From Bacteroidota bacterium (GTDB taxonomy: Bacteria; Bacteroidota; Bacteroidia; AKYH767-A; OLB10), in NCBI GenBank assembly GCA_029547265.1, contig JAKPPP010000178.1:8168-72167 (forward strand): 64,000 nucleotides of DNA, given 5' to 3'. The translations under genes and the position numbers were made by a program. A model generated the notes under the pieces. It saw nothing but the letters and a program-made list of their open reading frames with translations. It did not search any database and was not told the origin of the DNA. Of this stretch, positions 10,363 to 35,740 are shown piece by piece; the first letter of the stretch is position 1, and each line of letters opens with the position of its first letter.

Positions 10363-10526
10363 CAACCCGTTGAGGAAAAAATGCTCGTTCTTATCAACTC
10401 AACGGAAAGTTTCCTTGTCAAATATCCTATGACACGTGTTTTAGTCATGACGTTAAGCAAAACTTAGGTCATGATAGCATGAGCAAAAGAGATGGTCTTC
10501 ACCCTGTAAAGCAGAGTGAAGATTAT

Positions 10527-10600
10527 TCCTTCTTAGCTCAGCTGGTTAGAGCACATGACTGTTAATCATGGGGTCCCTGGTTCGAGCCCAGGAGAGGGAG
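10527..10600 (+). tRNA. tRNA-Asn: tRNA-Asn (anticodon GTT)
   Basis: Folded by hand. Acceptor stem tccttct/agaggga (one G-U pair). D arm gctc-agctggtta-gagc. Anticodon stem catga/tcatg with loop ctGTTaa. T arm cctgg-ttcgagc-ccagg. Discriminator G. No encoded CCA. Confidence 0.9.
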
Positions 10601-12113
10601 CATCGTCAAAAACGCCATCGGAAACGATGGCGTTTTGTTTTATATGCCCTTGTAATTCATTGATAGTCTTGGTTATTAGGAGGAAAGCTTCGTTCACTAT
10701 ACTGGTTCGATACGAGTTTTGGTCGAAAACCAGTTTTTGCGGAAATATCGAACCAACAATCTTTTGTTTAATCTCTACAGAAGCATTATGATAAAAACGT
10801 CTCAGGTTGTCAACCAATGAGAAACCTTTCTTGATGTAAAGTGAGAAATCCGACTCTTGTTCAAGGATTTGAGCTTCACGATTTTTCAATTCAACTATTT
10901 CTTCATCAAGCTTTTTTTTCATTGCAGAATAGGTTTCCACATCAATATGATCAGCTATGAATTTTTCATTCAGGGATTTGAGTTTCGCAGTTAAACCAGA
11001 CATCTCCATCTTAATCTTTTTCAAATCGGTTTCTTTGCCAGAGTTCATCTGAGAGAACTTCTTTTCCAGTATGAAACGATACAATTTTTTTATCTCTGGT
11101 TGAATCTTGAAGCTACCGAAATATTCTTCAAGCAAGTCATGCGCAACATTTGCCCGCACCCGGAAATCACAGTGGTATTTTTTCTGGCAGTGATAATAGT
11201 GGTGAAGACTTCCATTCCTACTTTTGCTGGCAGACCCGGTGAGATGTCTGCCACACCTTGGACAAACCAAAAGTGATCGAAGTGGAAATTCAGTTCGCCT
11301 TAATTCACTTTGCCCTTTTGACTTCTTTCTATTATTCATCACCCACTGAACTCGGTTGAAAAGCTCTTCACTAACCAAAGGTTCGTGAAGACCCTTCAAA
11401 CTAAACCCTGGTTCGTTACGCCAGGGTTTAACATCGATTAAGCCACAGTAAAACCTATTTCGAAGCAAATTCAGGAACTTTTGCTTAGTGAAGTAGTACC
11501 CATAATCATCCCGAATTAATCTTCTTACTTCTTCGGCATAATACATTCCTGTTGCCATCAGCTCATACGCTCGAATAACGAAAACTGACGCAATGGGGTC
11601 GAATAAAATACCCTTAGTAGTCTTGTCGTTCAGGTAACCGACCGGTGCTCTTCCCATAAATCTACCTGCTCGCATTGCCTCTCGCATTCCTTTAGTTGTA
11701 TTAAGTGAAAGCCTTGCGTTATACACTTCTGCCATCGCCATATCGATGACTTTCATTATAAGATCTTCCGGATTTCCTGTATTGTAGTCTCTATCCGCAA
11801 ATCGTAATTCAACACCAAGCTTTTTTAATCGGGTAATCATTTCCAATGAATCCTGAAGATTTCTACTGAAGCGATCTATCCGAACACATAGTAAAATATC
11901 AGGGCGGATTCTCTTTGTTTCAACATCTTGAAGGAATTTTTTAAACTGAGGGCGATTGAAGTCTTTCGCAGAATAATCATCTTGGTAATGTCCAATAATT
12001 TCCATGCCCGATCTTTCTGCAAAGGAACGTAGACTACGCTCCTGTTCTTGAAGTGAAAAACCCTGTTTTCGTTGTTCGTCTGTCGACACTCTTGTGTACA
12101 AAATAGCCTTCAT
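10566..12113 (-). CDS. large serine recombinase (serine integrase)
   Basis: N-terminal resolvase motif ILYTRVSTDEQ and IDRFSRN. Recombinase domain. Zn-ribbon CPRCGRHLTG...HCQKKYHC. C-terminal coiled coil. The ORF runs antisense through the terminator and 35 nt of the tRNA. Confidence 0.9.
   Translation of the reverse strand: MKAILYTRVSTDEQRKQGFSLQEQERSLRSFAERSGMEIIGHYQDDYSAKDFNRPQFKKFLQDVETKRIRPDILLCVRIDRFSRNLQDSLEMITRLKKLGVELRFADRDYNTGNPEDLIMKVIDMAMAEVYNARLSLNTTKGMREAMRAGRFMGRAPVGYLNDKTTKGILFDPIASVFVIRAYELMATGMYYAEEVRRLIRDDYGYYFTKQKFLNLLRNRFYCGLIDVKPWRNEPGFSLKGLHEPLVSEELFNRVQWVMNNRKKSKGQSELRRTEFPLRSLLVCPRCGRHLTGSASKSRNGSLHHYYHCQKKYHCDFRVRANVAHDLLEEYFGSFKIQPEIKKLYRFILEKKFSQMNSGKETDLKKIKMEMSGLTAKLKSLNEKFIADHIDVETYSAMKKKLDEEIVELKNREAQILEQESDFSLYIKKGFSLVDNLRRFYHNASVEIKQKIVGSIFPQKLVFDQNSYRTSIVNEAFLLITKTINELQGHIKQNAIVSDGVFDDAPSPGLEPGTP
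10573..10601 (+). repeat. attL-like copy of the direct repeat (intact tRNA-Asn 3' end)
   Basis: 29 nt: gtccctggttcgagcccaggagagggagc. Confidence 0.6.
10608..10641 (+). terminator. rho-independent terminator just 3' of tRNA-Asn (island-borne copy)
   Basis: aacgccatcg-gaaa-cgatggcgtt followed by ttgtttt. Lies inside the C-terminal tail of the antisense recombinase ORF. Confidence 0.7.
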
Positions 12114-12511
12114 ATTTTTTTCTTCCTTTTATAGTATGTTCCTAATATTTCAGATTCAACCCTACTAAATTCAATTTCATTTGGGGTGTCATCAATGAAT
12201 TTAATTTTCACTCCAGCATTCAGTAGTTTGTGCAACAACTCCACCGCCTTCAATAATGAACTACTGAACCTGTCTGAAGATGTACAGACAATCATTTTTA
12301 TTTTATTTTCTCGAGATTCGATGTCTTTCAACATTTGACCGAATTGTACACGGTTGAAATCATTCCCATTTGCGACATCGTAATATACACCAGAAATTGT
12401 GAGATCATTCTCCTTTGCATAAGTTGTTAATCTTGCGATCTGGTTTTGAATGGATTTATTTGGATTTTTGTCTTGCTTAGTTGCCGTTCTGGCATAAAGT
12501 GCTACTTTCAT
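12110..12511 (-). CDS. small resolvase-fold protein lacking the catalytic serine (pseudo-recombinase)
   Basis: MKVALYARTATKQ aligns with MKAILYTRVSTDEQ, so Ser is replaced by Ala. DRFSSS aligns with DRFSRN, so an active-site Arg is lost. Its stop overlaps the integrase start (ATGA at 12110-12113). Start set at the internal Met at 12511. Confidence 0.7.
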   Translation of the reverse strand: MKVALYARTATKQDKNPNKSIQNQIARLTTYAKENDLTISGVYYDVANGNDFNRVQFGQMLKDIESRENKIKMIVCTSSDRFSSSLLKAVELLHKLLNAGVKIKFIDDTPNEIEFSRVESEILGTYYKRKKKI

Positions 12512-12689
12512 TATTATTATTTTTAGAATTTGTGAAACTTTCGATTTGGTATTGTAAGTATTCAAGCTCAGCCATGCGTATAAGCACCTCACGAATTGCT
12601 TTAACTTCCTTATCACTGAACTTTCTTTTCCCTTTCGTTTGATTAAGTATAGCGGTGCATTTATCGAGCGGAATCATGAGGAGTATCAT
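12477..12689 (-). CDS. small hypothetical protein (about 66-70 aa)
   Basis: The only plausible ORF covering 12512-12660. Overlaps both neighbours in the way compact operons do. No recognisable motif. Confidence 0.35.
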   Translation of the reverse strand: MILLMIPLDKCTAILNQTKGKRKFSDKEVKAIREVLIRMAELEYLQYQIESFTNSKNNNNESSTLCQNGN

Positions 12690-12978
12690 GTTGAGCTAAT
12701 TGCCTTTTCAGGGGTTGATCAGCAGGGTCTCCTTGTTGTACAGTAAATTCAAATATTTCGGTAGTGATAATTTGCATGCCGGACTTCTTACCGTGTTTGT
12801 AGGTATTAATGGTTTTAAGATATAACTCTTCCCTTACAAGTTTGTTCTCCGTAATACACCCTCCCACATTTCTCGTATAGGTAACTTTCACTTTTCTTCG
12901 ATTTGGTTCGGGCTCGATTTGGATTTTTGTGTCACCCCTCTCAAGAACCTGTTTTAATTTTTGATACAGCTTTTGCAT
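12661..12978 (-). CDS. hypothetical protein
   Basis: 105-aa ORF in the same minus-strand operon. No recognisable motif. Confidence 0.5.
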   Translation of the reverse strand: MQKLYQKLKQVLERGDTKIQIEPEPNRRKVKVTYTRNVGGCITENKLVREELYLKTINTYKHGKKSGMQIITTEIFEFTVQQGDPADQPLKRQLAQHDTPHDSAR

Positions 12979-12985
12979 GGTATGT

Positions 12986-13408
12986 TTATTCTATAATGTC
13001 GCTGTTATAAAAAATTGAATCATCTTCATCTGTTTGGTCTGGTGCGTGCTTCAACAATTCATCTTCTTCTTGAATCATTTCAATAATTGTTCGCCTGTAC
13101 TGGTCGAGATCTTCATCAGTAATAGGGTCATCGGTTTCGAGGTATTCCCGAAGAAAGTACTCCGAGACAATGTGTAAATCAAATTCACGTACTAATGTTA
13201 TCAAAAATGGCATAACGTCATTACCGCCATACCGTGTAAATCCGTGAATCGGCTCATCATCGGAGTGAACGAACGTGTGAACGTAGTTTCCGTCTAACAC
13301 TAAAATGATGCCTCCATCTTCAGCGACCTCCTTTTTAATTGATGTTTTTTCTGCAATTTCCTTGTACGTAAGGCTTCGGCCTTTCATAAATGTCCAACTT
13401 GTACTCAT
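12986..13408 (-). CDS. hypothetical acidic protein
   Basis: 140-aa ORF with an acidic C-terminus. No recognisable motif. Confidence 0.55.
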   Translation of the reverse strand: MSTSWTFMKGRSLTYKEIAEKTSIKKEVAEDGGIILVLDGNYVHTFVHSDDEPIHGFTRYGGNDVMPFLITLVREFDLHIVSEYFLREYLETDDPITDEDLDQYRRTIIEMIQEEDELLKHAPDQTDEDDSIFYNSDIIE

Positions 13409-13447
13409 TCAATTGTAGTTTTTAGTAATTAGTGTTTAAATTTCAAC

Positions 13448-13960
13448 TTATAGTGGTTGTTCCTCATCGCTGTCGCCTTCGCTTTTTGATGATCCCAATG
13501 AATTCATTAATGATTCGAATTCGTCATCAAGTGTTAATGGAGGTTCTTTTTCTCGTAAGAAATTAATGGCAGAAAGAATGTCAGCAGCTTTGTATTTTCG
13601 ATTTCTGAAATAGCCTGAATTGTGGTAATTTCTTAAGAGGTCAATTGAGAATAGTGAACCCCGTCTATACAGGAAATGATCATACAAACCTACTTCGCTA
13701 ATAGCGTACTCTACTATTTCGGTAAATTGCTCTTTCGTAATTTTGTGATCCCGCTCTAACAAAGCATAGAAAGCTGGGTCTAAACGCAATTGAAAATGCT
13801 TGGAACGGCTCATGTATTCGCATATAGCAAGTAATACTGCTGTCCCAAGATGATCAAAGCGTTTGAATACGAAATTCCAACTCGGAGGTCGGTTATTTAA
13901 TAAGATGAAGTAGAACGGTACATTGTCCGGTGTTCTTCCCCCTTTGTTTGTTTTATTCAT
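13448..13960 (-). CDS. hypothetical protein, possibly DUF4373 (Lin1244-N)-like
   Basis: 170 aa. N-terminal VPFYFILL...LGTAVLLAICEYM...LRLDPAFYALL resembles the phage/island replication-associated DUF4373 pattern. This rests on weak recollection only. Confidence 0.4.
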   Translation of the reverse strand: MNKTNKGGRTPDNVPFYFILLNNRPPSWNFVFKRFDHLGTAVLLAICEYMSRSKHFQLRLDPAFYALLERDHKITKEQFTEIVEYAISEVGLYDHFLYRRGSLFSIDLLRNYHNSGYFRNRKYKAADILSAINFLREKEPPLTLDDEFESLMNSLGSSKSEGDSDEEQPL

Positions 13961-14090
13961 TTTGTTTTTTAGGCAAAGGAAGGAGGTAAGAAAAGGAGAA
14001 ATGCAAAAATCACGACACCACTTCTCCTTAAGGAAATCTTTTAAATGAGGAGTCTAACTTTAAGTCAGAATCTTAAGTCGAAAAGCATTA

Positions 14091-14966
14091 CTAATTCGCT
14101 TTATTTCGTTGCCTCTTTTTAGCATATGTAAACTGTTTAGCAATCCTATCTGCTATTCCACTTTTATAGACCTTTGCAACATTGCCATCCATATTTCGAT
14201 TTGCATGTTTATACTTAAGAAAATTAACCTTTGCGAGAAGTTCGTTGATAATAACATTCTTATCCCCTCGTTCTAAATCTGGGTCATCTAATATGATATC
14301 AAGATTTTCCAATGCAAACCTCCGGATGATAGACCCATTCTTTTTAGAATTGACATTATACCCTGTAAAATTCTTCAATTTAAAATCTAAACATGCCAAT
14401 TTGAAAAAACCATTAACATCCTCATTGTACCTCTCCTCATAACAACTAAGAATTTGAGATTGTAATTCCTCTTGATTAGGAATTGGTGTTAAAACTCCTT
14501 TGTTCTTGTAACAAATTACAATACCTGTCTTTTCTCCAAACCGCAATTGCATTAAGCTCTTTACAAATAAAGAGTGAATTGCTTGTGCATTTTCTGATAT
14601 CTCTGGATTAACGCTTTGAGTGAAGAATTTTTCGCAGTGCTTCAACATCAGTAGGAATAGACATATTGTTCCGCTATCAGACGAAATTGATAGATGGCTA
14701 ACATTATTTTCAACGAAATTGAAGAGTTCCGCTTCAACCCATAAATGGTTGTAGTACTCATCTTCATCAGCCGTTATACCGCTATAACTGTTAGGCTCAA
14801 ATTCTTGAACTAAATTTGGGATGTAATCTTTAAAATCCTCGAATAGAATATTTATAAGCTCTGAATTATAATTAACCTTAACTGCAACTTCCTTGTAGTT
14901 GCTGAAATTCACTCTCTCATCAAGCTCAAAATACTTGACTACTTCATAGGTGTTTTTTGTTTTCAT
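14091..14966 (-). CDS. hypothetical protein (first gene of the minus-strand integration-module operon)
   Basis: 291-aa ORF with a basic C-terminal tail (KKRQRNKAN). No recognisable motif. Confidence 0.6.
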   Translation of the reverse strand: MKTKNTYEVVKYFELDERVNFSNYKEVAVKVNYNSELINILFEDFKDYIPNLVQEFEPNSYSGITADEDEYYNHLWVEAELFNFVENNVSHLSISSDSGTICLFLLMLKHCEKFFTQSVNPEISENAQAIHSLFVKSLMQLRFGEKTGIVICYKNKGVLTPIPNQEELQSQILSCYEERYNEDVNGFFKLACLDFKLKNFTGYNVNSKKNGSIIRRFALENLDIILDDPDLERGDKNVIINELLAKVNFLKYKHANRNMDGNVAKVYKSGIADRIAKQFTYAKKRQRNKAN

Positions 14967-15444: not shown

Positions 15445-15462
15445 TTTTTTGAATTCAAAAAA
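15445..15462. promoter_or_regulatory. perfect 18-bp palindrome TTTTTTGAATTCAAAAAA upstream of the XRE-hsdM operon (candidate operator)
   Basis: Read directly from the sequence, 32 nt upstream of the XRE start codon at 15494. Confidence 0.4.
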
Positions 15463-15493
15463 AGACGTATTTTGTCCTGTCAAAATTATTCAG

Positions 15494-15799
15494 ATGAAAA
15501 GAGTTGGAGAAACATTGCGAGAGCTGCGAAATAGGAGACATCTTCTTATTCGTGAAGTAGCTGCCTCTGTTAATATGGATCAAACGCTATTGTCGAAGAT
15601 TGAAAGGGATGAGAGACTTCCGACTGTAGAGCAAGTGAAATCACTATCAAAGTTTTATAAGACAGACGGAAATGATATTCTACTCGCTTATCTAAGTGAT
15701 AAGGTGTTGATGGAGCTTAAAGACCAACCTCTCGCATTACAGGCAATTCAAATTGCCGAAGAAAAAATTCAGAAATCACAAGTAAATAAAAAGAAATAA
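15494..15799 (+). CDS. XRE-family HTH regulator translationally coupled to hsdM (controller-like)
   Basis: LRELRNRRHLLIREVAASVNMDQTLLSKIERDERLPTVEQV. Its stop overlaps the hsdM start as TAATG (15797-15801). Confidence 0.8.
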   Translation: MKRVGETLRELRNRRHLLIREVAASVNMDQTLLSKIERDERLPTVEQVKSLSKFYKTDGNDILLAYLSDKVLMELKDQPLALQAIQIAEEKIQKSQVNKKK

Positions 15800-18264
15800 T
15801 GGCGGTTAAGAAAAGTGAACTTTATACATCACTCTGGAAGGGTTGCGATGAACTACGTGGCGGAATGGATGCCTCTCAGTACAAAGACTACGTATTGACT
15901 TTGCTCTTCGTAAAGTATGTTAGCGACAAGTATGCCGGACGCAAAGATGCTGTGATTGAAATCCCTGAAGGTGGTTCGTTTTCTGATATGGTTCAACTCA
16001 AAGGGAAGAAAGACATAGGTGATGGATTAAATAAAATCATTGGTAAGCTGGCTACAGCAAATGATTTACGTGGGGTAATAGATGTGGCAGACTTTAACGA
16101 CAGTGATAAGCTTGGCAAGGATAAAGCCATGCAAGACCGCTTGTCAAACCTCATTTCCATTTTCGAGAATTCTTCTTTAGACTTTTCAAAAAATAGAGCT
16201 GACGGTGATGACCTTTTAGGTGATGCTTACGAATATTTGATGCGTCACTTTGCAACAGAATCAGGTAAATCAAAAGGACAGTTCTATACACCTGCCGAGG
16301 TTAGTCGCATTCTGGCTAACGTTATTGGAATTAAGCACGCTAAAAGCCAGGATCAAACGATTTATGATCCGACATGCGGAAGTGGCTCTCTCTTATTGAA
16401 AGCTGCTGATGAAACGGAAAAGGGTTTAACCATATACGGGCAAGAGAACGATAATGCTACAGCAGCCTTGGCGAAAATGAATATGATTCTGCACAATAAT
16501 CCAACTGGGGAAATCAAGCAAGATAATACTCTTGCTAACCCTCTTTTCCTTAACCCGGACAAAACGCTGAAGACTTTTGATTATGTAGTGGCTAATCCTC
16601 CCTTCAGTTATGCATCTTGGAGTAATGGATTGGATGCTGAAAATGACTTGTACGAGCGATTTAAAGGGTTTGGAATCCCTCCAACCAAAAATGGGGACTA
16701 TGCTTTCCTCTTGCACATCGTTCGTTCGTTAAAGAGCTCCGGAAAGGGTGCTGTGATTTTACCTCATGGTGTTTTATTCCGTGGTGGTGCCGAAGGCACT
16801 ATCCGGACTAACCTTATTCGTAGAGGTTATATCAAGGGAATTATAGGTTTGCCTGCAAACTTATTCTACGGTACGGGTATCCCTGCTGCGATTATCATCA
16901 TTGACAAGGAAAATGCGTTGGCTCGTAAGGGCATTTTCATGATTGATGCATCGAAAGGATTTGTGAAGGATGGCAACAAAAATCGTTTACGTGATCAAGA
17001 CATTCATAAAATTGTCGATGCCTTCAACAACCAAACTGAAATAGAAAAGTTCAGTCGATTAGTTCCTGTGGCTGAAATTGAAGCCAATGAATTTAACCTG
17101 AATATTCCTCGTTATATTGACTCGCAGGAGCAAGAGGACATACAAGACATCGAAGCTCATTTGTTAGGTGGAATACCATTGGCAGACATTGATGCGCTTC
17201 AACCGTATTGGGAAGTATATCCAGCATTGCGAAATACGCTTTTCAAAAAGAATGTTCGTCCCAAGTATGTTGATTTAAACGTACCAAAAGAAGAAATCAA
17301 AGCTACGATTTACAATCATCCGGAATTCAAGGCGTATAAAGCGGAAGTTGAAGATGTGTTTAATGGTTGGAAGAAAAGTGTTGTTCCTGTTCTTGAGGTT
17401 ATTCAAATAGGGGATAAACCAAAGCACTTGATTAAAGAGATTTCCGAAGATCTGTTAAACCGATTTTCGAATTTGAAGCTGATTGACAAATACGATGTTT
17501 ATCAAAACTTAATGCAATACTGGTCTGACACAATGCAAGACGATGTTTACACACTTGTTGTAGATGGTTGGTTAGCCGGAAGAGTTGTAGAAAAGCAGGA
17601 TAAAAAAAGGGAATGGGAAGGACTACTCATTCCTAAGGCATTGGTAATACAGAAATACTTTCAATCCGAGCAACAGACAATTGATGATTTGCAATTAAAA
17701 AGAGATGAACTCTCACAACAATTGAGTGATTTAGAAGAGGAACATGGTGGTGAAGAGGGATTGTTCTCTGAAGTGAAGAACGATAAAGACAAGGTGAATA
17801 AAGCAATGGTTCAAAAACGTATCAAGCATCTTGAAAAATCAGTGAACAAAAAGCAACTAAGTTTAGCTGCTGAACAAGTATACGATTACGCATCTAAAGA
17901 AGAATATTCTGATGCAGATGAGTTCATGATGTTGAGTAGGTGGATAAACTTAACCGACAAAATATCTGAGCAAGACAAATTAATCAAAGAAGCTGAGGCT
18001 AAACTGGACGAGGCATTATTGAAGAAATTCGGTTTGCTTTCTGAAAAGGAAATTAAGGATTTAATTGTTGGTGATAAGTGGCTTCATACATTAAATGATG
18101 CGGTTCATTCAGAGATGAATAGAATTAGCCAAAAATTAACCCAAAGGATAATTATACTCATTGAACGTTATCAAGAAACACTGTTAACTCAAATACAGAA
18201 GATTCAAGTACTTGAGAAGAAAGTTGAAAATAATCTTACCAAAATGGGCTTTACATGGCAGTAG
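15799..18264 (+). CDS. hsdM: Type I restriction-modification system methyltransferase subunit, with a C-terminal extension of about 380 aa
   Basis: HsdM_N-like N-terminus. SAM motif DPTCGSGSLL. Catalytic motif VVANPPFS. NIPRYID marks the end of the MTase core at about aa 441. A coiled-coil-rich extension follows to aa 821. Confidence 0.9.
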   Translation: MAVKKSELYTSLWKGCDELRGGMDASQYKDYVLTLLFVKYVSDKYAGRKDAVIEIPEGGSFSDMVQLKGKKDIGDGLNKIIGKLATANDLRGVIDVADFNDSDKLGKDKAMQDRLSNLISIFENSSLDFSKNRADGDDLLGDAYEYLMRHFATESGKSKGQFYTPAEVSRILANVIGIKHAKSQDQTIYDPTCGSGSLLLKAADETEKGLTIYGQENDNATAALAKMNMILHNNPTGEIKQDNTLANPLFLNPDKTLKTFDYVVANPPFSYASWSNGLDAENDLYERFKGFGIPPTKNGDYAFLLHIVRSLKSSGKGAVILPHGVLFRGGAEGTIRTNLIRRGYIKGIIGLPANLFYGTGIPAAIIIIDKENALARKGIFMIDASKGFVKDGNKNRLRDQDIHKIVDAFNNQTEIEKFSRLVPVAEIEANEFNLNIPRYIDSQEQEDIQDIEAHLLGGIPLADIDALQPYWEVYPALRNTLFKKNVRPKYVDLNVPKEEIKATIYNHPEFKAYKAEVEDVFNGWKKSVVPVLEVIQIGDKPKHLIKEISEDLLNRFSNLKLIDKYDVYQNLMQYWSDTMQDDVYTLVVDGWLAGRVVEKQDKKREWEGLLIPKALVIQKYFQSEQQTIDDLQLKRDELSQQLSDLEEEHGGEEGLFSEVKNDKDKVNKAMVQKRIKHLEKSVNKKQLSLAAEQVYDYASKEEYSDADEFMMLSRWINLTDKISEQDKLIKEAEAKLDEALLKKFGLLSEKEIKDLIVGDKWLHTLNDAVHSEMNRISQKLTQRIIILIERYQETLLTQIQKIQVLEKKVENNLTKMGFTWQ

Positions 18265-19529
18265 TAGAGAAAAGTTATAAGCAAACCGAAGTTGGATTAA
18301 TCCCAACAGATTGGGTGGTGTTTAGCTTTGGTGAAATTGTCGATTACACCAAGGGTTATGCATTTAAATCAAACGATTATAAAGATAATGGAATCCGGAT
18401 AATTCGAGTAAGTGATACTACGTATGATTCAGTTAAGAAAGAGAACGGTATATATTTGGAAGAGAAATTTGCTAAACAATTTAACAATTGGAAACTTGAC
18501 GAAGGCGACCTAATATTTTCAACCGTTGGTTCTAAACCGCCAATGTATGATTCAATGGTTGGAAAAGTAATAATGGTCTCCAAGGAGTTTGAAGGATGTT
18601 TATTAAATCAGAATGCTGTTCTAATAAGATCCAAAAAGCGCAAAAAGGAAATTCAGGCACTTTTGTTAAGCCATTTCCGGACGAAAAGGTATTTGCAATA
18701 CATAGAACTTATTTTTAGAGGTAACGCTAATCAAGCGAGTATCACATTAAAAGACTTATTTGAATTTAAAATCCCACTTCCTAAGAGTGACTCCGAACAA
18801 ACAGCCATTGCCACCGCCCTAAGCAATATAGATTCGCTGATCAGTAATTTGGAGAAGTTGATTGAGAAGAAGAGGATGATTAAGCAGGGAGTTATGCAGG
18901 AGTTGTTGAAGCCGACAGTGGATTGGGTCACTTATGATTTATATGAGTCATGTGAACTTATTACGAAAGGCACAACCCCAACTTCAATTGGTCAAGAGTT
19001 TAAAAATGGGGGAATAAATTTCATAAAAATAGAATCACTTACTTCGAAAGGTGAAATTGTCCCCGATAAAGTTGCATATATTGATAATCTTACTCATAAG
19101 ATATTAAACCGATCCCAACTCAAAGTCGGGGATCTTCTTTTTTCAATTGCAGGTGCTTTAGGTAGGGTTGCTTTGGTGAATGAAAGCATATTACCAGCAA
19201 ATACTAATCAAGCTCTTGCTATTATACGACTTAAGGATGATTCAAAAATAAATGGTGATTTCTTGTTCTACTATTTAAACAGCCGTAAAATCCAAAACCA
19301 TATTTTGGGAATTAGTGTACAAGGTGCGCAAGCGAACTTGTCTTTACAAAACATTTCTGACTTTAAAATTAACTGCCCAAAGATAAAAGAAGAACAATTT
19401 AATATAGCTAAAACTTTGCGATCTCTGGATGATGAACTTACATTATTGGAAAATCAACAATCTAAGTACAACCAAATTAAGCAAGGAATGATGCAATCAT
19501 TATTAACAGGTAAAATTAGGTTGATTTGA
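18255..19529 (+). CDS. hsdS: Type I restriction-modification specificity subunit
   Basis: Two target-recognition halves, each followed by a conserved helix (...EQTAIATALSNIDSLISNLEKLIEKKRMIKQGVMQELL and ...EQFNIAKTLRSLDDELTLLENQQSKYNQIKQGMMQSLLTGKIRL). Overlaps hsdM by 10 nt. Confidence 0.9.
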   Translation: MAVVEKSYKQTEVGLIPTDWVVFSFGEIVDYTKGYAFKSNDYKDNGIRIIRVSDTTYDSVKKENGIYLEEKFAKQFNNWKLDEGDLIFSTVGSKPPMYDSMVGKVIMVSKEFEGCLLNQNAVLIRSKKRKKEIQALLLSHFRTKRYLQYIELIFRGNANQASITLKDLFEFKIPLPKSDSEQTAIATALSNIDSLISNLEKLIEKKRMIKQGVMQELLKPTVDWVTYDLYESCELITKGTTPTSIGQEFKNGGINFIKIESLTSKGEIVPDKVAYIDNLTHKILNRSQLKVGDLLFSIAGALGRVALVNESILPANTNQALAIIRLKDDSKINGDFLFYYLNSRKIQNHILGISVQGAQANLSLQNISDFKINCPKIKEEQFNIAKTLRSLDDELTLLENQQSKYNQIKQGMMQSLLTGKIRLI

Positions 19530-20166: not shown

Positions 20167-20910
20167 ATGGAACCATACATAAATGCCTTCATTGAAATAT
20201 TGAGATTCGGTTTGCCAAGTGTCTTATTGCCTCTTTTAATAATTAGATGGAACAATCAACACAATATAAAGCTAAAAGAACTCGAACAAAAATTGGAAGT
20301 GGAAAAACTTTCTACTTCGAAATCTATTGAAAAAACCTTTGTGGTTGATAATGAAAAGCGCATACACGAAAAGGATGTTTACGCCTGCCTCTTAAAAACA
20401 TTATTCGAAATACAAAAATTGCATATTGAACTTTCGGGAAATTGTGTAGACTTTAAATGTATTGATTCTGCGGTAATGAAATTCAAAGCATCTTTAACAA
20501 AGTATCAGGAGATCATCGCTGACAATCAAATTTATTTATCTGCTGAAGCAACGAATTACTTATACGGTTTCTATCAACTTACTGGTGAATTACTCATTGA
20601 ACTAAAAGAAATTCAGGATAAAAAGAAATATCACTTGGCTAATGCTTGCGTTTATTTGAAATCACAATTTTTAGCAATGAAAACATTGCAAGTAAGGCAC
20701 GGTTTCAATCAGGATTCACAGGAGCAAATTGATGAAGAACTGTTTGAAAAGGAATATAGCAATTTTATTTCATGTTGTGGAAACGCTCCAGGAAGTTCCC
20801 TAATGGAAGAGTACTTTGATTTTTCGAGTGAATTTAAGACTGGAGGCAAACAGGAGATTGAAGAGGAGGAAGGAACAGTCACAGCAGAAAGAACTATTCC
20901 TGAGAAATAA
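20167..20910 (+). CDS. hypothetical protein with an N-terminal hydrophobic segment and an acidic tail
   Basis: 247 aa. FGLPSVLLPLLIIRW near the N-terminus, a helical central region, and a C-terminal EIEEEEG tail. Ends 34 nt before hsdR. Confidence 0.6.
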   Translation: MEPYINAFIEILRFGLPSVLLPLLIIRWNNQHNIKLKELEQKLEVEKLSTSKSIEKTFVVDNEKRIHEKDVYACLLKTLFEIQKLHIELSGNCVDFKCIDSAVMKFKASLTKYQEIIADNQIYLSAEATNYLYGFYQLTGELLIELKEIQDKKKYHLANACVYLKSQFLAMKTLQVRHGFNQDSQEQIDEELFEKEYSNFISCCGNAPGSSLMEEYFDFSSEFKTGGKQEIEEEEGTVTAERTIPEK

Positions 20911-20944
20911 AGTACATAAGATATTTTTCGATAGAATAAATAGC

Positions 20945-23900
20945 ATGAGCAAAGTAGGCGAAATAGAACGCAAAACCCAGGATAGAATCGTAATGCTTTT
21001 AGCTAACGATTTGAAGTACGACTACCTGGGTAATTTTCAAGATAGAGAGGACAACTCTAATATTGAAGTAGAACTTCTGAAATCACATTTAACTGATCGT
21101 GGTTATTCCGAAGTTTTGATTAGTCGGGCTGTTGCTGAATTGATCAAGACTGCCGGAGATCAAAACAGGAGCCTTTACGATGTAAATAAGGATGTATATC
21201 AACTACTTCGTTATGGAGCAAAGCAAAAAGAAGAAGTTGGCAAACAAAAAGAAACGGTTCATTTCATAGATTGGGAGAAACCCAACAATAATACCTTTTC
21301 ATTTGCAGAGGAAGTTAGTATTAGAGGCGAAAACACAAAACGCCCTGATATTGTACTTTACATCAATGGGATTGCTATTGCTGTCTTGGAATTGAAGCGT
21401 AGTACGATTAGTGTGAGCGAAGGAATTCGTCAGAATATCGACAATCAGAAACGAACATTCATTCGTCCGTTTTTCACTACGATGCAATTAGTAATGGCGG
21501 GCAATGATACGGAGGGCTTACGTTACGGTTCGATTGAAACACCGGAGAAATATTACCTAATGTGGAAGGAAGAATACCCTTCAGAAAACTTATTGGACAA
21601 GCATATTCATTGCGTTTGCCGTAAGGAAAGAATTTTGGAACTGCTGCATGATTTCGTAGTCTTCGATAGAGGGATAAAGAAATTATCGAGGGTGAATCAG
21701 TATTTCGGAGTGAAGGCTGCACAAGATTTCTTAAAGAGAAGAGAAGGCGGTGTTATTTGGCATACGCAAGGTTCAGGTAAAAGTCTTGTGATGGTTTGGC
21801 TGACAAAATGGATTCGTGAGAATATTAACGGCTCCCGTGTACTGATCATCACAGATAGAGATGAACTTGATAAGCAGATTGAGAAAGTCTTTAAAGGAGT
21901 AAACGAAGAAATCATTCGAACTAAGTCAGGAGCCGATCTCATTGAAAAATTGAATTTAGCATCTCCGTGGTTGATGTGTTCCTTAATTCATAAATTCGGG
22001 AATAAAGAAGAGCCCGATTACGATGAATACATCGAAGATCTAAAAAAGAGCCTTCCAAAGGATTTCAAAGCGAAGGGTGATATTTATGTATTGGTAGATG
22101 AATGCCACCGGACACAAAGCGGAAAACTTCACAAGGCAATGAAAATGATATTGCCTAATTCCGTGTTTGTTGGATTTACCGGAACTCCACTCTTGAAGGC
22201 TGATAAGGAAACCAGTTTAGAAGTATTTGGCAGGTATATACACACCTATAAGTTCGATGAAGCAGTAAAAGATAAAGTTGTTCTTGACTTGTTATATGAA
22301 GCCCGTGATATTGATCAATATATCACTTCTCAAAGTAAAATTGACCAGTGGTTCGACTCAAAAACAAAAGGACTTAACGAATACCAACGAACTGAATTGA
22401 AAAAACGATGGGGAACGATGCAAAAAGTGTTGAGTTCTAAGTCTCGTCTTGAACAAATTGTCAAGGACATTGTATTCGACATGAGTACCAAACCACGTTT
22501 GATGAGTGGTCGTGGAAATGCAATGTTGGTGAGTGGAAGCATTTATCAAGCGTGTAAATTCTACGAACTTTTTCAGCATACAGACTTAGCTGGTAAATGT
22601 GCAATAGTTACAAGTTATAACCCATCGGTAAGCGATATTAAAGGAGAAGCAAGTTCCGACAATGCCATTACCGAAAAATTAAAGCAATACGAGATCTACA
22701 ATCAAATGTTGAACGGTAAAACTGCCGAAGCGTTTGAAGAAGAAGCAAAGACCAAGTTCATTGATGAGCCAGCACAATTAAAATTGTTGATAGTTGTAGA
22801 TAAATTATTGACCGGCTTTGATGCACCGAGTGCAACATACTTGTATATCGACAAGAGTATGCAAGATCACGGATTATTCCAAGCAATTTGTCGAGTGAAC
22901 AGATTGGATGGAGATGACAAAGAGTATGGTTATGTGATAGACTATAAAGACTTGTTTGATAGCTTGAAAAAATCCATTCAGGATTACACTTCAGAAGCAT
23001 TTGACGGATATAACGAAGAAGATGTAAAAGGTCTTTTGACTGATAGGCTTACCAAGAGTCGTGAACACTTGGAAGAAGTATTGGAAGGGTTACGTGCATT
23101 AATTGAACCAGTGGAAATGCCAAAAGGGCAAATCCAATACATACGTTACTTCTGCGGAGATCCCGAAAAGAGTACTGATTTAAAGGAGAATGAACCGAAG
23201 CGTGTTACATTGTATAAACAAACATCTTCACTCATTCGAGCTTATGCTGCATTAGCGAATGAAATGGAAGATGCCGGTTACACATACTGTGAATCAGAAT
23301 CAATCAAGAGCGAAGTTGACTTCTTTGTTAAATTGAGGGATGAAATAAAAAATGCAAGCGGGGAAAAGATTGATTTAAAAGCATACGAACCCGACATGCG
23401 TTACTTGATCGACTCGTACATTAAAGCAGATGAGAGCGAGAAATTATCTGAGATGGATGACCTTTCTTTAATTCAACTGATTGTTGAGCGAGGAATGGAT
23501 GAAGCCGAAAAGAGTTTGCCAAATTCCATCCGTAAAAGTAAAGAAGCGATGGCGGAAACCATTGAGAATAATATTCGAAGACTCATCATTGACGAAACAC
23601 CAACCAACCCCAAGTACTTTGAAAAAATGAGTGTTCTACTTGAAGAATTGGTTAAAGAACGTAAGAGGGCGAAGATTGAATACTTAGAATACCTCCGAAA
23701 GATTGTTGAGCTAAGTAAGAACGTTAAAAAACCTGAATCAAGCGGACAGTACCCTCCTACAGTAAATTCAAGAGGAAAGCGAGCAATTTACGATAACGTT
23801 AACAAGGATGAAAAGTTAACAGTAGCACTTGACCAAGAAATACTTTATACACGAAAAGATAGTTGGAGAGGGAATAAAGCCAAAGAGAAGGAGATAAGAA

Positions 23901-23980
23901 TAGCAATCCGCAAACATGTGCAGGACGATGAACTTGTTGATGCTATATTCGACATTATCAAGCAACAACCGGAGTATTAA
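20945..23980 (+). CDS. hsdR: Type I restriction endonuclease subunit R
   Basis: N-terminal PD-(D/E)xK (RPDIVLYINGIAIAVLELKR). SF2 helicase motifs HTQGSGKS, DECHRTQSG, GFTGTP and QAICRVNR. Start set at MSKVGEIERK (20945). Confidence 0.9.
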   Translation: MSKVGEIERKTQDRIVMLLANDLKYDYLGNFQDREDNSNIEVELLKSHLTDRGYSEVLISRAVAELIKTAGDQNRSLYDVNKDVYQLLRYGAKQKEEVGKQKETVHFIDWEKPNNNTFSFAEEVSIRGENTKRPDIVLYINGIAIAVLELKRSTISVSEGIRQNIDNQKRTFIRPFFTTMQLVMAGNDTEGLRYGSIETPEKYYLMWKEEYPSENLLDKHIHCVCRKERILELLHDFVVFDRGIKKLSRVNQYFGVKAAQDFLKRREGGVIWHTQGSGKSLVMVWLTKWIRENINGSRVLIITDRDELDKQIEKVFKGVNEEIIRTKSGADLIEKLNLASPWLMCSLIHKFGNKEEPDYDEYIEDLKKSLPKDFKAKGDIYVLVDECHRTQSGKLHKAMKMILPNSVFVGFTGTPLLKADKETSLEVFGRYIHTYKFDEAVKDKVVLDLLYEARDIDQYITSQSKIDQWFDSKTKGLNEYQRTELKKRWGTMQKVLSSKSRLEQIVKDIVFDMSTKPRLMSGRGNAMLVSGSIYQACKFYELFQHTDLAGKCAIVTSYNPSVSDIKGEASSDNAITEKLKQYEIYNQMLNGKTAEAFEEEAKTKFIDEPAQLKLLIVVDKLLTGFDAPSATYLYIDKSMQDHGLFQAICRVNRLDGDDKEYGYVIDYKDLFDSLKKSIQDYTSEAFDGYNEEDVKGLLTDRLTKSREHLEEVLEGLRALIEPVEMPKGQIQYIRYFCGDPEKSTDLKENEPKRVTLYKQTSSLIRAYAALANEMEDAGYTYCESESIKSEVDFFVKLRDEIKNASGEKIDLKAYEPDMRYLIDSYIKADESEKLSEMDDLSLIQLIVERGMDEAEKSLPNSIRKSKEAMAETIENNIRRLIIDETPTNPKYFEKMSVLLEELVKERKRAKIEYLEYLRKIVELSKNVKKPESSGQYPPTVNSRGKRAIYDNVNKDEKLTVALDQEILYTRKDSWRGNKAKEKEIRIAIRKHVQDDELVDAIFDIIKQQPEY

Positions 23981-23983
23981 TCG

Positions 23984-24697
23984 ATGAAGCAAATTCAGAT
24001 AAGCAATATAACAATTGATGTCGTAAAAAAAGACATCAAGAACATCCACTTGGCGGTCTATCCACCGACAGGTCGTGTTCGTATTGCTACTCCATTGCAT
24101 ACTACTGATGATTCCATTCGCTTGTTTGCTATTTCAAAATTGGGTTGGATAAAACGCCAACAGCGAAATTTTGAAAAACAAAAAAGACTTCCTTCAAAGG
24201 AGTACGTTAACCGTGAAAGCCATTTCTACTTGGGCAAGCGGTATTTGTTAAATGTAATTGAATCAATAGACAAGCCTAAAATTATTGTTCGGCATAGTAG
24301 AATTGACCTTTATGTTCGTCCCGGAACATCTATTGAACAAAAAAACGAACTTCTTTCTGATTGGTATCGCAATCAACTGAAAGACCATATCTCACCATTG
24401 ATTACGAAATGGGAAAAGATCTTGAAAGTAAAAGTTCAGCATTGGGGTATTCGTAAAATGAAAACAAAGTGGGGAAGTTGTACAATCGAAACACAACGAA
24501 TACTTCTCAACCTCGAATTGATTAAAAAGCCTGTAGCTTGTTTGGAGTACATAATTGCCCACGAATTGGTACACTTGCTCGAACGGCATCATAATGATCG
24601 CTTTCTTTCCATTCTTAGCAAGCATCTTCCAAATTGGAAACATTTAAAGGAAGAATTGAATCGTTTTCCACTTGATCATTCGGATTGGGAGTATTAA
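23984..24697 (+). CDS. DUF45/YgjP-like (M48/SprT-like) zinc metallopeptidase
   Basis: HExxH motif in IIAHELVHLLERHHN. Starts 3 nt after the hsdR stop. Confidence 0.85.
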   Translation: MKQIQISNITIDVVKKDIKNIHLAVYPPTGRVRIATPLHTTDDSIRLFAISKLGWIKRQQRNFEKQKRLPSKEYVNRESHFYLGKRYLLNVIESIDKPKIIVRHSRIDLYVRPGTSIEQKNELLSDWYRNQLKDHISPLITKWEKILKVKVQHWGIRKMKTKWGSCTIETQRILLNLELIKKPVACLEYIIAHELVHLLERHHNDRFLSILSKHLPNWKHLKEELNRFPLDHSDWEY

Positions 24698-25339: not shown

Positions 25340-25927
25340 ATGGCAACTAAATACTGTAAAACTGAATGTACGGCTCTTGAGTGGGAACAATTCCTAATTC
25401 TGGTTGACCGGCTTAAGAAAACTACTGAATACCGGTTCCTACTGTTGATTTGTATTGGATGTTATTGCGGACTTCGTTTATCAGATATACTTCAATTAAG
25501 ATGGCATGATATACTTGAGAAGGATTATTTTGAACTTGCAGAGAGGAAAACTGGTAAACACAGGAGGATAACTATTAACTCTTCTTTAAAGGAGATCATA
25601 GTATTCTCTTACTCAAATCTTCAGAGAAAAAAGCAAATCTGCGCTGGAGATTTCATTTTTACCAATCGCAAAGGTGGAGTACTCTCTAAACAGTTCGTCA
25701 ACCGGAAACTACATTCAATTTTCCAGTATTGTAGGGTTAAAGTTCAAAATGGCAGTTCTCATACTCTTCGCAAAACATTTGGGAAGCGAGTTTACGAAAT
25801 GAATGATCGCAGTGAAGCTGCCCTTATTCTGCTGAGTTCGATCTTCAATCACAATTCGGTTGCAGTTACCAGACGATATATCGGCTTATCACAAGAACAA
25901 ATCAAAGACGCTTATATCAACTTATAA
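25340..25927 (+). CDS. short tyrosine recombinase (catalytic domain only)
   Basis: 195 aa. Catalytic residues in the expected order: Arg I in GLRLSDILQLRW, H-x-x-R in HTLRKTFG, and His/Tyr in NHNSVAVTRRYI. Only about 40 aa precede Arg I, so there is no core-binding domain. Confidence 0.8.
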   Translation: MATKYCKTECTALEWEQFLILVDRLKKTTEYRFLLLICIGCYCGLRLSDILQLRWHDILEKDYFELAERKTGKHRRITINSSLKEIIVFSYSNLQRKKQICAGDFIFTNRKGGVLSKQFVNRKLHSIFQYCRVKVQNGSSHTLRKTFGKRVYEMNDRSEAALILLSSIFNHNSVAVTRRYIGLSQEQIKDAYINL

Positions 25928-28130: not shown

Positions 28131-28850
28131 TTAAGGGCGTCCTGACCCGACTTTTCCATTCATGTAATCAGTTATTCGTTTCTGTAACGAATAATTTTCC
28201 TGCCAATGCATTTTTACCAACCAAAACAAATCGCCAGATTCTTTCATTTTAATCGAAAACCGTGAAAATCCCTGGTGCTTGTTCAAATCTCGTTCGAATA
28301 TGAGTTCATCCTTATTGTCAAAACGATAGTATGCAACATTAACCAAAGTATTCTTCGAAATTTGAACAAATCTATTGGAAATGGGGTCAATCATTTTCTT
28401 GATTTCATCATAATTGAGCTCGTTGCTATTTAGTTCATATTGGCGGTATACTTCACGAGATTGCCCGGCAGGAGAAATAATATCTTCCCGTAGTATAAAT
28501 GCCTTCTTGCGCCCCTTAATTGGTGTATAAACGCAAATTAAGTCCCTCGGATCAACACTTACCTCTTTACTGAACTTCCCATCTTTTAATTTGAAAGTAA
28601 CCGTACCAGGTTCGTAAAAAGCTCGTCTGTCTTGAAGGATAGATTGAAAGGCAGTGTAAATATGTAATTCAAAGTTATGTCTAAGATTATAAAGATCACT
28701 TTTCAATTGGTCGTTCTGTAAAGACAGCTCGTTGTTATTTTGTTTTAACCTTGCAAGTTCTGCTTCTACTTCTTTCATTTTTTCAATTCTTTTTTGTGGC
28801 TTATCGGTTTGCAGCTTGGCGTTCGGTTTGCCGAGCAAGATTTGCATCAA
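28131..28850 (-). CDS. coiled-coil protein with a C-terminal LytTR-like DNA-binding domain (no receiver domain)
   Basis: N-terminal coiled coil EVEAELARLKQNNNELSLQNDQLKSDLYNL. C-terminal pattern ...DLICVYTPIKGRKKAFIL...LNYDEIKKMI...FVQISKNTLVNVAYY resembles the LytTR consensus (F-x-R-x-H-R-S-x-x-V-N). Confidence 0.6.
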   Translation of the reverse strand: MMQILLGKPNAKLQTDKPQKRIEKMKEVEAELARLKQNNNELSLQNDQLKSDLYNLRHNFELHIYTAFQSILQDRRAFYEPGTVTFKLKDGKFSKEVSVDPRDLICVYTPIKGRKKAFILREDIISPAGQSREVYRQYELNSNELNYDEIKKMIDPISNRFVQISKNTLVNVAYYRFDNKDELIFERDLNKHQGFSRFSIKMKESGDLFWLVKMHWQENYSLQKRITDYMNGKVGSGRP

Positions 28851-28942
28851 AGTAAAGAGTAGGCGAGTAATTGTTAGATGGCAAACTGACGCAAAGCTAT
28901 GCTGTTACCTGCTGGCGCTTTTCCGTGAATATTTTCTTTCTT

Positions 28943-29503
28943 TTACTCGTCAATTCCAAAACAAGATACAATTGTCCTTTTCTGGTCTTTACTATTAGGA
29001 TTTGATACTACTATTCCATATTCTCCAGCTTTAAGGGTTCTAAGAATTATGAGGTAAGACGATGTTCCATATTTTTTGCCGCTAAATAGAATCATATCAT
29101 TAGAGTTAGTGCGACTTTTCATTAGGGTGCCGGAATTATCTTCGCTCAGCACCACCGACCTGGTATTCTTCTTGGCTTTGAATTTATATATTGTAATGAT
29201 TGTTAAAGGATCTGAGTTATTATCTACGGCACGAACTACTAATTGTAATTTTTCACTTGTAGAAAATCTTGTTTGTGCCTTTCCTCCAGCTATTTCAAGG
29301 GAAAGTGCATTCCATGAGTTTGATGACCAAGAAACACCCGAAGTATAATTGCCGAACTCTTTATCTAAATCAACATGAGAACTGTCAGCTTTTAATAAAT
29401 AAGTGTCGCCTACAAATTCGGGGTCTTTATTTTGTCCGTGCGTTGGTAAAACACTAAATAAAATTGATGTTAAAATAAAAATTGAGATTTTAATTATTTT
29501 CAT
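28943..29503 (-). CDS. secreted hypothetical protein
   Basis: Signal peptide MKIIKISIFILTSILFSVLPTHGQ. Beta-rich composition. 4-nt gap from the upstream gene. Confidence 0.6.
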   Translation of the reverse strand: MKIIKISIFILTSILFSVLPTHGQNKDPEFVGDTYLLKADSSHVDLDKEFGNYTSGVSWSSNSWNALSLEIAGGKAQTRFSTSEKLQLVVRAVDNNSDPLTIITIYKFKAKKNTRSVVLSEDNSGTLMKSRTNSNDMILFSGKKYGTSSYLIILRTLKAGEYGIVVSNPNSKDQKRTIVSCFGIDE

Positions 29504-29507
29504 GGTT

Positions 29508-30242
29508 CTATTTTTTTATAAAGTTAATTGTTCCAAATGGATGTTGAATAAAGTGAATACGATTAATTTTTGGTGCGGTTACCAAGTCAAAAAGAAATTG
29601 ATTTAATTCTGTCATTATAAACTCTATTGTACTCCACAAATCAAATTTAATTGGTTTGAACTTTTCAAAAGTAAAAATCTGAGACTTGTAAGTTACGGTC
29701 ATGTCGTCTTTAGTATGGAATCCTCCATTGTGATTTGAATTACGGATAGTTTGAAATATCTTAATCAAATTTTTATAGTCAGAATTAATAGCAGCATAAT
29801 CAATTAGATAGTCCCTTATTCTCCAAAAGTCTTCTAATGCGTCAGGAAATTTTGAATTTGGAATAGCTTTAACAATACTCCTTAAAGAGTTTTCAAAATG
29901 AGTAAAACTTAGAATAATGTAATTTGTGCTTAAGTCTACTCCATAAGAGTAAATTCTTGCTTCAGCATAACTTTCTAATTCTGTCGAAGGTAAAGAAAAA
30001 TTTTTGTTGTTTTTCCACCACTCCTTTTTTGTGAGATAATCTTTCAGAAAAACACTCGAAAGGAGTGAACTATTTGCAACTTCTCTAAGGGTTGTGAACA
30101 CTACAATTCGAGAGTCGTTCGTAATGTCGAGTACTGAATTATTTGTTTTGACTTTTTCAATTGAAGTCGAAAAATCATTGGTGATTTTAAAAAAGAAGTC
30201 TGTTATTTCTTCGGGCTTTTGTTTGGTTAAATAATTGTCCAT
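29508..30242 (-). CDS. hypothetical cytoplasmic protein (244 aa)
   Basis: Long ORF with no family recognised. Contains IRNSNHNGGFH; see noticed_but_rejected for the HEPN idea. Confidence 0.6.
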   Translation of the reverse strand: MDNYLTKQKPEEITDFFFKITNDFSTSIEKVKTNNSVLDITNDSRIVVFTTLREVANSSLLSSVFLKDYLTKKEWWKNNKNFSLPSTELESYAEARIYSYGVDLSTNYIILSFTHFENSLRSIVKAIPNSKFPDALEDFWRIRDYLIDYAAINSDYKNLIKIFQTIRNSNHNGGFHTKDDMTVTYKSQIFTFEKFKPIKFDLWSTIEFIMTELNQFLFDLVTAPKINRIHFIQHPFGTINFIKK

Positions 30243-30403
30243 TTATCAAATCTTATTTTTAGTATCTGCCTAAGGCGTGCATGTAACTTATTTACATGCG
30301 TTATAATAATATATTAATTACTTGTTCATTTTGTAAAAGTATCATTGAATATTGAAGTCTAATTGTCATATAGCTGATTTGCCTGGACTACCAAATTGTC
30401 ATG

Positions 30404-35559: not shown

Positions 35560-35601
35560 TCCCTGGTCGACCCCGATAGCTATCGGGGCAGGAGAGGGAG
35601 C
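35559..35601 (+). repeat. attR-like degenerate copy of the tRNA-Asn 3' end, with an 18-bp perfect palindrome in place of the T-loop
   Basis: gtccctggt-cga-c-cc[cgatagctatcgggg]caggagagggagc. 27 of the 29 tRNA positions are retained, with a 15-nt insertion. Palindrome ccccgatagctatcgggg at 35571-35588. Confidence 0.6.
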
Positions 35602-35663
35602 GGTGAAGCGTGAATCGAGCAACGCGAGATTCTCTACTGCAGGGCGGGATATAAATCAAACAA

Positions 35664-35697
35664 AAAACCCTGAAGCTTGCTTCGGGGTTTTTTGTTT
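35664..35697 (+). terminator. rho-independent terminator (likely the native tRNA-Asn terminator displaced by the island)
   Basis: aaccctgaag-cttg-cttcggggtt followed by ttttgtttt, 65 nt after the repeat. Confidence 0.65.
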
Positions 35698-35740
35698 TAA
35701 GAAAAGCCTTCATTTTTTATTGAGGCATGAACTATTTTAT

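Follow-up and report, generated by a model that had tools for sequence, protein, structure and literature searches.

Why would an integrase gene be preceded by a small gene for a copy of its own catalytic core that lacks the nucleophilic serine? The question is raised by a 64,000-nucleotide stretch of Bacteroidota DNA (assembly GCA_029547265.1, contig JAKPPP010000178.1, positions 8,168 to 72,167 of the forward strand), referred to here at its full length as the window. In it, the gene of a large serine recombinase (LSR), P0002, directly follows a small open reading frame (ORF), P0001, which an earlier note on this DNA had described as a resolvase-fold paralogue without the nucleophile, coupled to a serine integrase. 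Sequence comparison bore out this description, and the motifs of P0002 look active. On the same kind of evidence, the small ORF appears to be a genuine gene whose translated product has a serine-recombinase catalytic core, and we class the pair as an LSR integration module to which a pseudoenzyme paralogue has been added. P0001 is probably an undescribed noncatalytic helper or brake of the integrase. The features at the center of the analysis are the following (lengths in amino acids [aa]).

12511..12110, minus strand: small resolvase-core paralogue P0001, 133 aa, starting MKVALYARTATKQ (ORF call, Pfam, BLASTP and HMMER)
12113..10566, minus strand: LSR P0002, 515 aa, starting MKAILYTRVSTDEQ (Pfam)
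12110..12113, minus strand: ATGA, in which the small-ORF stop codon overlaps the LSR start codon (plus-strand letters TCAT)

The catalytic core of P0001

P0001 matched the Pfam Resolvase family (PF00239) with an E value of 1.4e-18 and 67.8 bits (cutoff, 23.3) over residues 3 to 115; the match spanned profile positions 1 to 105 of 145, and no other Pfam domain was found. The AF2 model (pLDDT 72.5) had a strand-helix core, and its top Foldseek matches were serine-recombinase catalytic domains, with TM scores of 0.60 to 0.66 to 6dgc, 3guv, and 3bvp. Together, the PF00239 score and the Foldseek matches place P0001 in the fold of the serine-recombinase catalytic domain. The protein extends from strand 1 to strand 4 and continues into a helix E stub and a basic C-terminal tail, and it has no DNA-binding domain. 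Residues 115 to 129 were modeled as a low-confidence hairpin instead of a long helix. A longer form of 168 aa starting at GTG 12616 was considered and rejected: the extension overlaps the upstream gene g70 in another frame, and the homologues P0004 to P0007 and P0009 start at MK.

In BLASTP, P0001 was 34% identical to its own integrase over 107 residues without a gap (E value, 2e-21). Ala10 of P0001 stood opposite Ser10 of P0002, and D80-R81-F-S-S84 paired with D80-R81-F-S-R84. HMMER alignments to solved structures also placed Ala10 opposite the nucleophile, Ser12 in the TP901-1 integrase (3bvp) and the corresponding Ser in 3guv. Because the alignment is gap free from strand 1 to the motif, a register shift is unlikely. 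Thus, the alanine claimed for the nucleophile position is supported by both kinds of alignment, and a shift that would bring Ser or Thr to this position is improbable. The claimed overlap of the stop codon with the integrase start was likewise found, the plus-strand TCAT reading ATGA in the coding sense. P0002 itself consisted of the Resolvase, Recombinase, and Zn_ribbon_recom domains of Pfam with intact YTRVST and DRFSR motifs, as in other members of the LSR group.

Cleavage by Tn3 resolvase requires Y6, R8, S10, D36, R68, and R71 (PMC2794168). P0001 keeps Y6 and R8, as well as D45 and R81, which correspond to D36 and R68, and lacks the equivalents of S10 (Ala10) and R71 (Ser84). Contigs from another activated-sludge sample spanned codon 84 with no differences; Ser84 is thus no assembly slip. 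Three defining features of active recombinases, namely, the nucleophilic serine, the full set of essential residues, and helix E with a DNA-binding domain, were looked for in P0001, and none was present, which places it outside the active serine recombinases. With the nucleophile, one essential arginine, and any DNA-binding part all gone, P0001 is predicted to be unable to cleave DNA and cannot, as far as its residues tell, be a recombinase by itself.

Relatives, selection and recurrence of the pair

A word-based search found eight close relatives of P0001. All of them had YARTAT, and they had DRFSRS except for the window's own cluster (DRFSSS) and one fragment (DRFSQS). Thus, the change of serine to alanine is a family trait, while the loss of the arginine is private to the window copy. 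The earlier note had also reported the latter loss, which is true of this copy but does not extend to its close homologues. Some sister lineages retain Ser and have lost Arg81 or Asp80 instead.

In a Cyclobacteriaceae metagenome-assembled genome (L001), the same island lay at the same tRNA-Asn with the same ATGA overlap, and its small ORF was 77% identical to P0001 by tblastn and 76% identical in a global alignment. Two genomes of the window's family carried divergent small ORFs. The one in G056 (131 aa, RAST with Ser kept, DR changed to DQ) lay upstream of an LSR 89% identical to P0002, and the one in G039 (119 aa, RVAS, Asp changed to Ser) lay upstream of an LSR that was approximately 67 to 71% identical. 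A small ORF of the G056 type was found on a metagenome contig at tRNA-Asn (L029; LSR, 89% identical). The LSRs at L001, L010, and L029 shared 88 to 89% identity with P0002. The small ORF was upstream of every LSR of at least 66% identity that was found, at four further loci (L001, L005/L010, L006, and L029). Conservation next to homologous integrases, on which the earlier note had made its proposal depend, therefore holds for these LSRs but not for most related integrases, from which the small ORF is absent. In the window's order, fifteen LSRs at 33 to 39% identity had no small ORF within 1.5 kb, and among 80 metagenome LSR loci, 69 of which had at least 600 nucleotides (nt) upstream, it was found in L029 alone.

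The alignment of the near family showed at least one essential residue replaced in each lineage, at positions that differed between lineages. Clade A had S10A, clade B kept Ser and had DR changed to DQ, and clade C had S10A together with Asp changed to Ser; further lineages showed Thr/Lys and a replacement of Arg by Asn/Lys. The invariant positions were Y6, R8, Y43, and D45, and Q24 was nearly so. Varied losses around an invariant core are the pattern of a pseudoenzyme, unlike that of a decaying fragment. At the G039 locus (L006/L011, G039:C20), the integrase downstream of the clade C small ORF occurred in duplicate and was split into fragments of 235, 292, and 207 aa, and the locus is either a decaying element or an assembly artifact.

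These residues also bear on whether P0001 could still serve as a catalytic subunit, through Thr9 or Thr11, which stand on both sides of Ala10 (RTAT), or, in clade B, through the retained serine (RAST). However, no alternative hydroxyl position was conserved across the family, and the DNA-binding domain and the full helix E are absent. In the lineages with a retained Ser, the residue corresponding to Arg68 is gone, and Tn3 resolvase cannot do without it (PMC2794168). We consider residual catalysis to be extremely improbable.

The pairing was also found beyond this clade. When 150 genomes of the class were scanned with PF00239, a single further Ser-less resolvase ORF (G555, locus L133) stood among the matches listed; it encoded 153 aa with RVAT and lay just upstream of, and co-directional with, an LSR at tRNA-Asn that was 39% identical to P0002. 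On an IMG/VR contig (L121), a small protein of 128 aa, with Ser changed to Asn, overlapped its LSR gene by ATGA. It was 46% identical to its own LSR versus 28% to P0001, which argues for repeated birth via partial duplication. All seven Ser-less small ORFs with readable context, from three LSR lineages, were directly upstream of and co-directional with an LSR. The 4-nt ATGA overlap recurred in L001, L005/L010, and L121, while L029 had a gap of 2 nt and L133 a gap of 230 nt. The pairing thus appears as a tight integrase clade with sporadic independent cases. Scans of IMG/VR with P0019, A10, and A11 gave ordinary Ser-bearing recombinases only; tblastn with P0001 gave three weak matches to integrase N termini in phage records and none in the plasmid collection.

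Searched exhaustively with HMMER, 1.84 billion cluster representatives yielded 610 hits at an E value of ≤1e-10, and residues were counted in the best 150. In these, 65 of the 81 domain rows from proteins of ≤175 aa lacked the serine, mostly having Ala, compared with 3 of the 70 rows from proteins of ≥400 aa, a contrast that is somewhat biased because the profile was built from Ser-less proteins. Several of the Ser-bearing short proteins among the best 150 resembled gene fragments. The search returned dozens of clusters of short, mostly Ser-less proteins, and P0074, P0161, and P0162 were in-frame fusions with the dead domain at the N terminus of an LSR. In a tree of the core domain, which had 107 columns and poor resolution, the near family fell within a cluster of almost wholly small proteins (support, 87 to 90), located on the side of the tree that also holds the partner LSR group.

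Two other architectures were observed. Eight proteins of approximately 1,100 aa (P0022, P0024, P0058, P0086, P0102, P0116, P0126, and P0145) had two Ser-bearing catalytic domains separated by approximately 570 residues and look like two LSRs fused head to tail. Three proteins of 272 to 330 aa (P0063, P0084, and P0093) had two tandem resolvase cores, both without the nucleophilic serine.

The ratio of nonsynonymous to synonymous substitution rates (dN/dS) of the small ORF was 0.12 between the window and L001 and 0.15 between L029 and L010, compared with 0.02 to 0.06 for the LSR at comparable dS, all with dS values near saturation. These ratios indicate that the small ORF is under purifying selection, and it evolved approximately 8 times faster than the LSR. 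Recent swapping of LSR genes was considered as the source of the high LSR identity and was rejected, since the dS of the LSR was as high as that of its neighbors.

Purifying selection is the first of several points against the explanation that P0001 is the leftover of a partial tandem duplication of the 5' end of the integrase gene, kept as a translated leader that feeds ribosomes to the next gene while the protein has no role. The measured ratios are far from the value of approximately 1, the frame stays open at 119 to 133 aa in lineages that are only 33 to 40% identical, the residues of the fold core are kept, the AF2 and Foldseek models are confident, and the coupling is not universal, given the gaps in L029 and L133. 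The ATGA overlap, the L121 copy, whose likeness to its own LSR suggests birth by duplication, the different catalytic decay in each lineage, and the fragmented integrase in G039 would agree with a leader. Overall, we regard this explanation as very unlikely.

The integrase operon and its island

The further features of the integrase operon and its surroundings are the following (coordinates in the window).

10527..10601, plus strand: tRNA-Asn(GTT), left island junction (same layout in L001, L029, and L133)
10589..10601, plus strand: 13-nt direct repeat CAGGAGAGGGAGC, left copy, att core region (repeat match)
35589..35601, plus strand: 13-nt direct repeat, right copy, right end of the approximately 25-kb island (repeat match)
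12477..12677, minus strand: g70, 66-aa helical protein, the best-conserved accessory gene (63 to 88% identity)
12661..14966, minus strand: upstream co-directional genes of 105, 140, 170, and 291 aa (syntenic in L001, L029, and L010)
15449..15799, plus strand: XRE-type helix-turn-helix (HTH) protein, divergent from the operon (Pfam HTH_31/HTH_3)
15799-18264, 18255-19529, and 20816-23980: hsdM, hsdS, and hsdR of a type I restriction-modification system, island
23984-24697: YgjP-like peptidase, island
25340-25927: tyrosine-recombinase fragment of 195 aa, island
28131-32098: several ORFs without family assignment, island
33068-34746: AbiEii/AbiEi-like pair, island

The 3' part of tRNA-Asn is antisense to the final 11 sense codons of the LSR gene and to its stop codon. 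In a genome of the same genus (G003), the equivalent of window positions 35604 to 35726 lay approximately 220 nt downstream of tRNA-Asn, in an interval that held a second copy of the 3' 50 nt of the tRNA gene. The repeat pair and the position of the post-35603 sequence near tRNA-Asn in G003 assign the LSR to the approximately 25-kb island, a defense island. P0001 lies inside this island (10589 to 35601), in the integrase operon, and is thus encoded on the same mobile element, as is a recombination directionality factor (RDF). In DNA contigs from sequencing runs, which were short and of low depth, the joints were not seen.

The operon is packed in the order 291, 170, 140, 105, and 66 to 70 aa, then the small ORF in second-last position and the LSR at the end. 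The 170-aa gene has a weak likeness to Lin1244_N and replication initiators. The gene g70 shares 35 nt with the beginning of the small ORF, gave no matches in Pfam, NCBIfam, PHROG, or PADLOC, and has a predicted fold of a short helix and one long helix; as a candidate integrase cofactor, it is as good as P0001. The divergent XRE-type HTH protein is a candidate repressor of the operon. Scans for promoters of the sigma-70 type and of the Bacteroidota type (TTTG...TAnnTTTG) gave matches at no more than chance level, and an internal integrase promoter therefore cannot be claimed.

Several side observations were made on the site and its relatives. Directly after tRNA-Asn, a strong terminator-like hairpin (10609 to 10636, plus strand) lies within the integrase coding region, and the island seems to provide the terminator of tRNA-Asn. 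At the island-free site of G003 (L110, G003:C23), the extra copy of the tRNA-Asn 3' end (50 nt) lies 171 nt downstream of the gene and may be the scar of an earlier integration. Among the loci of the LSR family that were checked (among L012 to L105, 32 to 43% identity), 31 of 36 ended within the 3'-terminal part of a gene for a tRNA or tmRNA. The targets of the P0002-like LSRs were tRNAs for Asn, Glu, Lys, Met, Arg, Leu, and Phe and tmRNA, with the last integrase codons antisense to the tRNA, and the relatives of P0002 thus look to be a large family of tRNA-targeting serine integrases. Short contigs identical to window positions 10400 to 13100 occurred in activated-sludge metagenomes from four studies (2016 to 2023), by which the carrier strain or the island would be widespread in activated sludge.

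Possible roles of P0001

The position in the operon, the start-stop overlap, the strict co-occurrence within the clade, the independent recurrences, and the fusions argue for a functional link between P0001 and the LSR. The role that we tentatively put forward as the likeliest of those considered is that of a noncatalytic partner that modulates the LSR through contacts with its catalytic domain. P0001 would be made together with the tRNA-Asn-targeting LSR of the island and would dock on its N-terminal domain, probably on the surface of helix D and the N-terminal part of helix E, which serine recombinases use for both the inactive dimer and the active tetramer; the docked protein would then gate the assembly of the LSR into a complex competent for cutting. 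Because P0001 keeps helix D, strand 4, and the stub of the start of helix E, the free core could compete at the dimer/tetramer interface, either as a brake or as a licence. The dimer of the phiC31 integrase must open for synapsis and the cleaving tetramer, and in its attB-Int-RDF complex, both the zinc-ribbon domain and the RDF are contacted by an N-terminal domain (10.1101/2025.05.02.651858). A complex prediction with residues 1 to 160 of the LSR and P0001 gave a score of 0.02, which we take as evidence neither way.

Several points weigh against this proposal. Most of helix E, the main oligomerization element, is missing from P0001, and the stub is absent in clades B and C. The N-terminal domain of the LSR is almost invariant, yet the partners of clades A and B share 34 to 39% identity, and no LSR positions were found to co-vary with the type of partner; a tight co-evolving interface is therefore not evident. 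The small ORF was missing upstream of approximately 85 related tRNA-targeting LSRs at 32 to 43% identity, including five at tRNA-Asn, and the reaction as such can thus proceed without the gene. Y6, R8, and D45, which persist in the pocket, could serve the binding of a ligand or phosphate rather than a protein interface. Physical binding, the interface, and the direction of the effect, a brake or a licence for excision, are our inferences.

Like the RDFs Bxb1 gp47, phiC31 gp3, and SPbeta SprB, P0001 is a small accessory protein that comes from the same element as an LSR and might control it. To our knowledge, all known RDFs act on the zinc-ribbon/coiled-coil region of the LSR. If P0001 were a classical RDF, it would bind this region, switch the enzyme to attL x attR excision, and inhibit integration. 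The operon and the overlap suggest co-expression with the integrase from its own element, and the operon is divergent from the XRE repressor candidate, as induction-coupled excision would predict. Known RDFs are structurally unrelated, "scavenged" proteins according to one survey (PMC11795197), and the N-terminal domain contacts in the phiC31 complex cited above would also fit. However, obligatory translational coupling would supply the RDF whenever the integrase is made, which is awkward for integration, and most relatives in the P0002 family do without the gene. The partner clades are more than 60% different while the LSR is constant, and other small conserved genes (g70 and g105) are equally good RDF candidates. 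We consider the RDF role unlikely.

A function unrelated to recombination, in which the half-pocket binds phosphate, a nucleotide, or nucleic acid for island regulation, replication, or defense and the operon is merely shared, has to be weighed against the location of the seven Ser-less ORFs with readable context (7/7), each directly upstream of and co-directional with an LSR. The in-frame fusions to LSRs and the lack of any PADLOC match also speak against it. Such a function would account for the invariance of Y6, R8, and D45 (and nearly of Q24) across very divergent members, for the D-R-x-x-R kept by many other short Ser-less families, and for the many short Ser-less proteins beyond those with readable context; the basic C-terminal tail could bind nucleic acid. 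This explanation also seems improbable to us.

We return to the proposed partner of the catalytic domain, which can be compared with several known systems. The N-terminal catalytic domains of LSRs (TP901-1 integrase, 3bvp; 3guv; TnpX, 2mhc; PF00239) have the same fold and order of secondary structures as P0001 and share its Y6, R8, D36, and D67/R68 equivalents, whereas P0001 stands alone at 133 aa, with the nucleophile replaced by Ala and the R71 equivalent by Ser; it stops at profile position 105 of 145 and lacks the recombinase and zinc-ribbon domains. CcrA and CcrB of SCCmec are two serine-recombinase paralogues that lie side by side and act on one element, and both are full-length, DNA binding, and catalytic. 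The window pair likewise consists of adjacent serine-recombinase paralogues, but P0001 is neither full-length nor catalytic. Tn5 Inh and the P-element KP repressor are element-encoded, catalytically useless recombinase derivatives without DNA binding that act via mixed oligomers. They belong to another enzyme superfamily and are made from the same gene, whereas P0001 is a diverged paralogue with a hypothetical inhibitory role.

The engineered mutants S10A of Tn3/gamma-delta resolvase and S12A of the phiC31 integrase have the same substitution at the same position as P0001. Such nucleophile mutants are dead for cleavage (PMC2794168) and still form DNA-bound and synaptic complexes, S12A having been used for cryo-electron microscopy (10.1101/2025.05.02.651858). 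The engineered proteins are full-length and bind DNA, while P0001 is natural, consists of the core only, and stands beside the wild-type enzyme.

For proteins of the P0001 type, NCBIfam, PHROGs, and PADLOC gave generic recombinase matches below the cutoff or none, and Pfam gave the generic Resolvase family. The RDF surveys that were read, including PMC11795197, make no mention of an RDF with a resolvase fold. A full-text literature search and a targeted reading of RDF surveys and a review of integrative and mobilizable elements turned up no account of a natural resolvase core that lacks Ser and accompanies an LSR. The arrangement, which the earlier note did not know as an RDF class, is thus also without a description in the family libraries and in the literature searched.

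More broadly, Ser-less core-only copies may form a recurrent class of integrase cofactors, repeatedly born from partial 5' duplication, that dock on the interface of the N-terminal domain (helix D/helix E start) and set the opening of the dimer to the cleaving tetramer. This would be a third control of LSRs beside coiled-coil autoinhibition and classical RDFs, and we consider it rather doubtful.

Large serine integrases are central tools of genome engineering, and their control is an active structural question. For annotation, the dozens of look-alike clusters, which the ESM Atlas labels "recombinase family protein," are probably not recombinases. If the proposal is true, P0001 would neatly exemplify a pseudoenzyme that arose from the very enzyme it accompanies, with residue knockouts specific to each lineage and a fold under selection, and a natural partner working through the catalytic domain would add a new principle of integrase control and a possible orthogonal switch.

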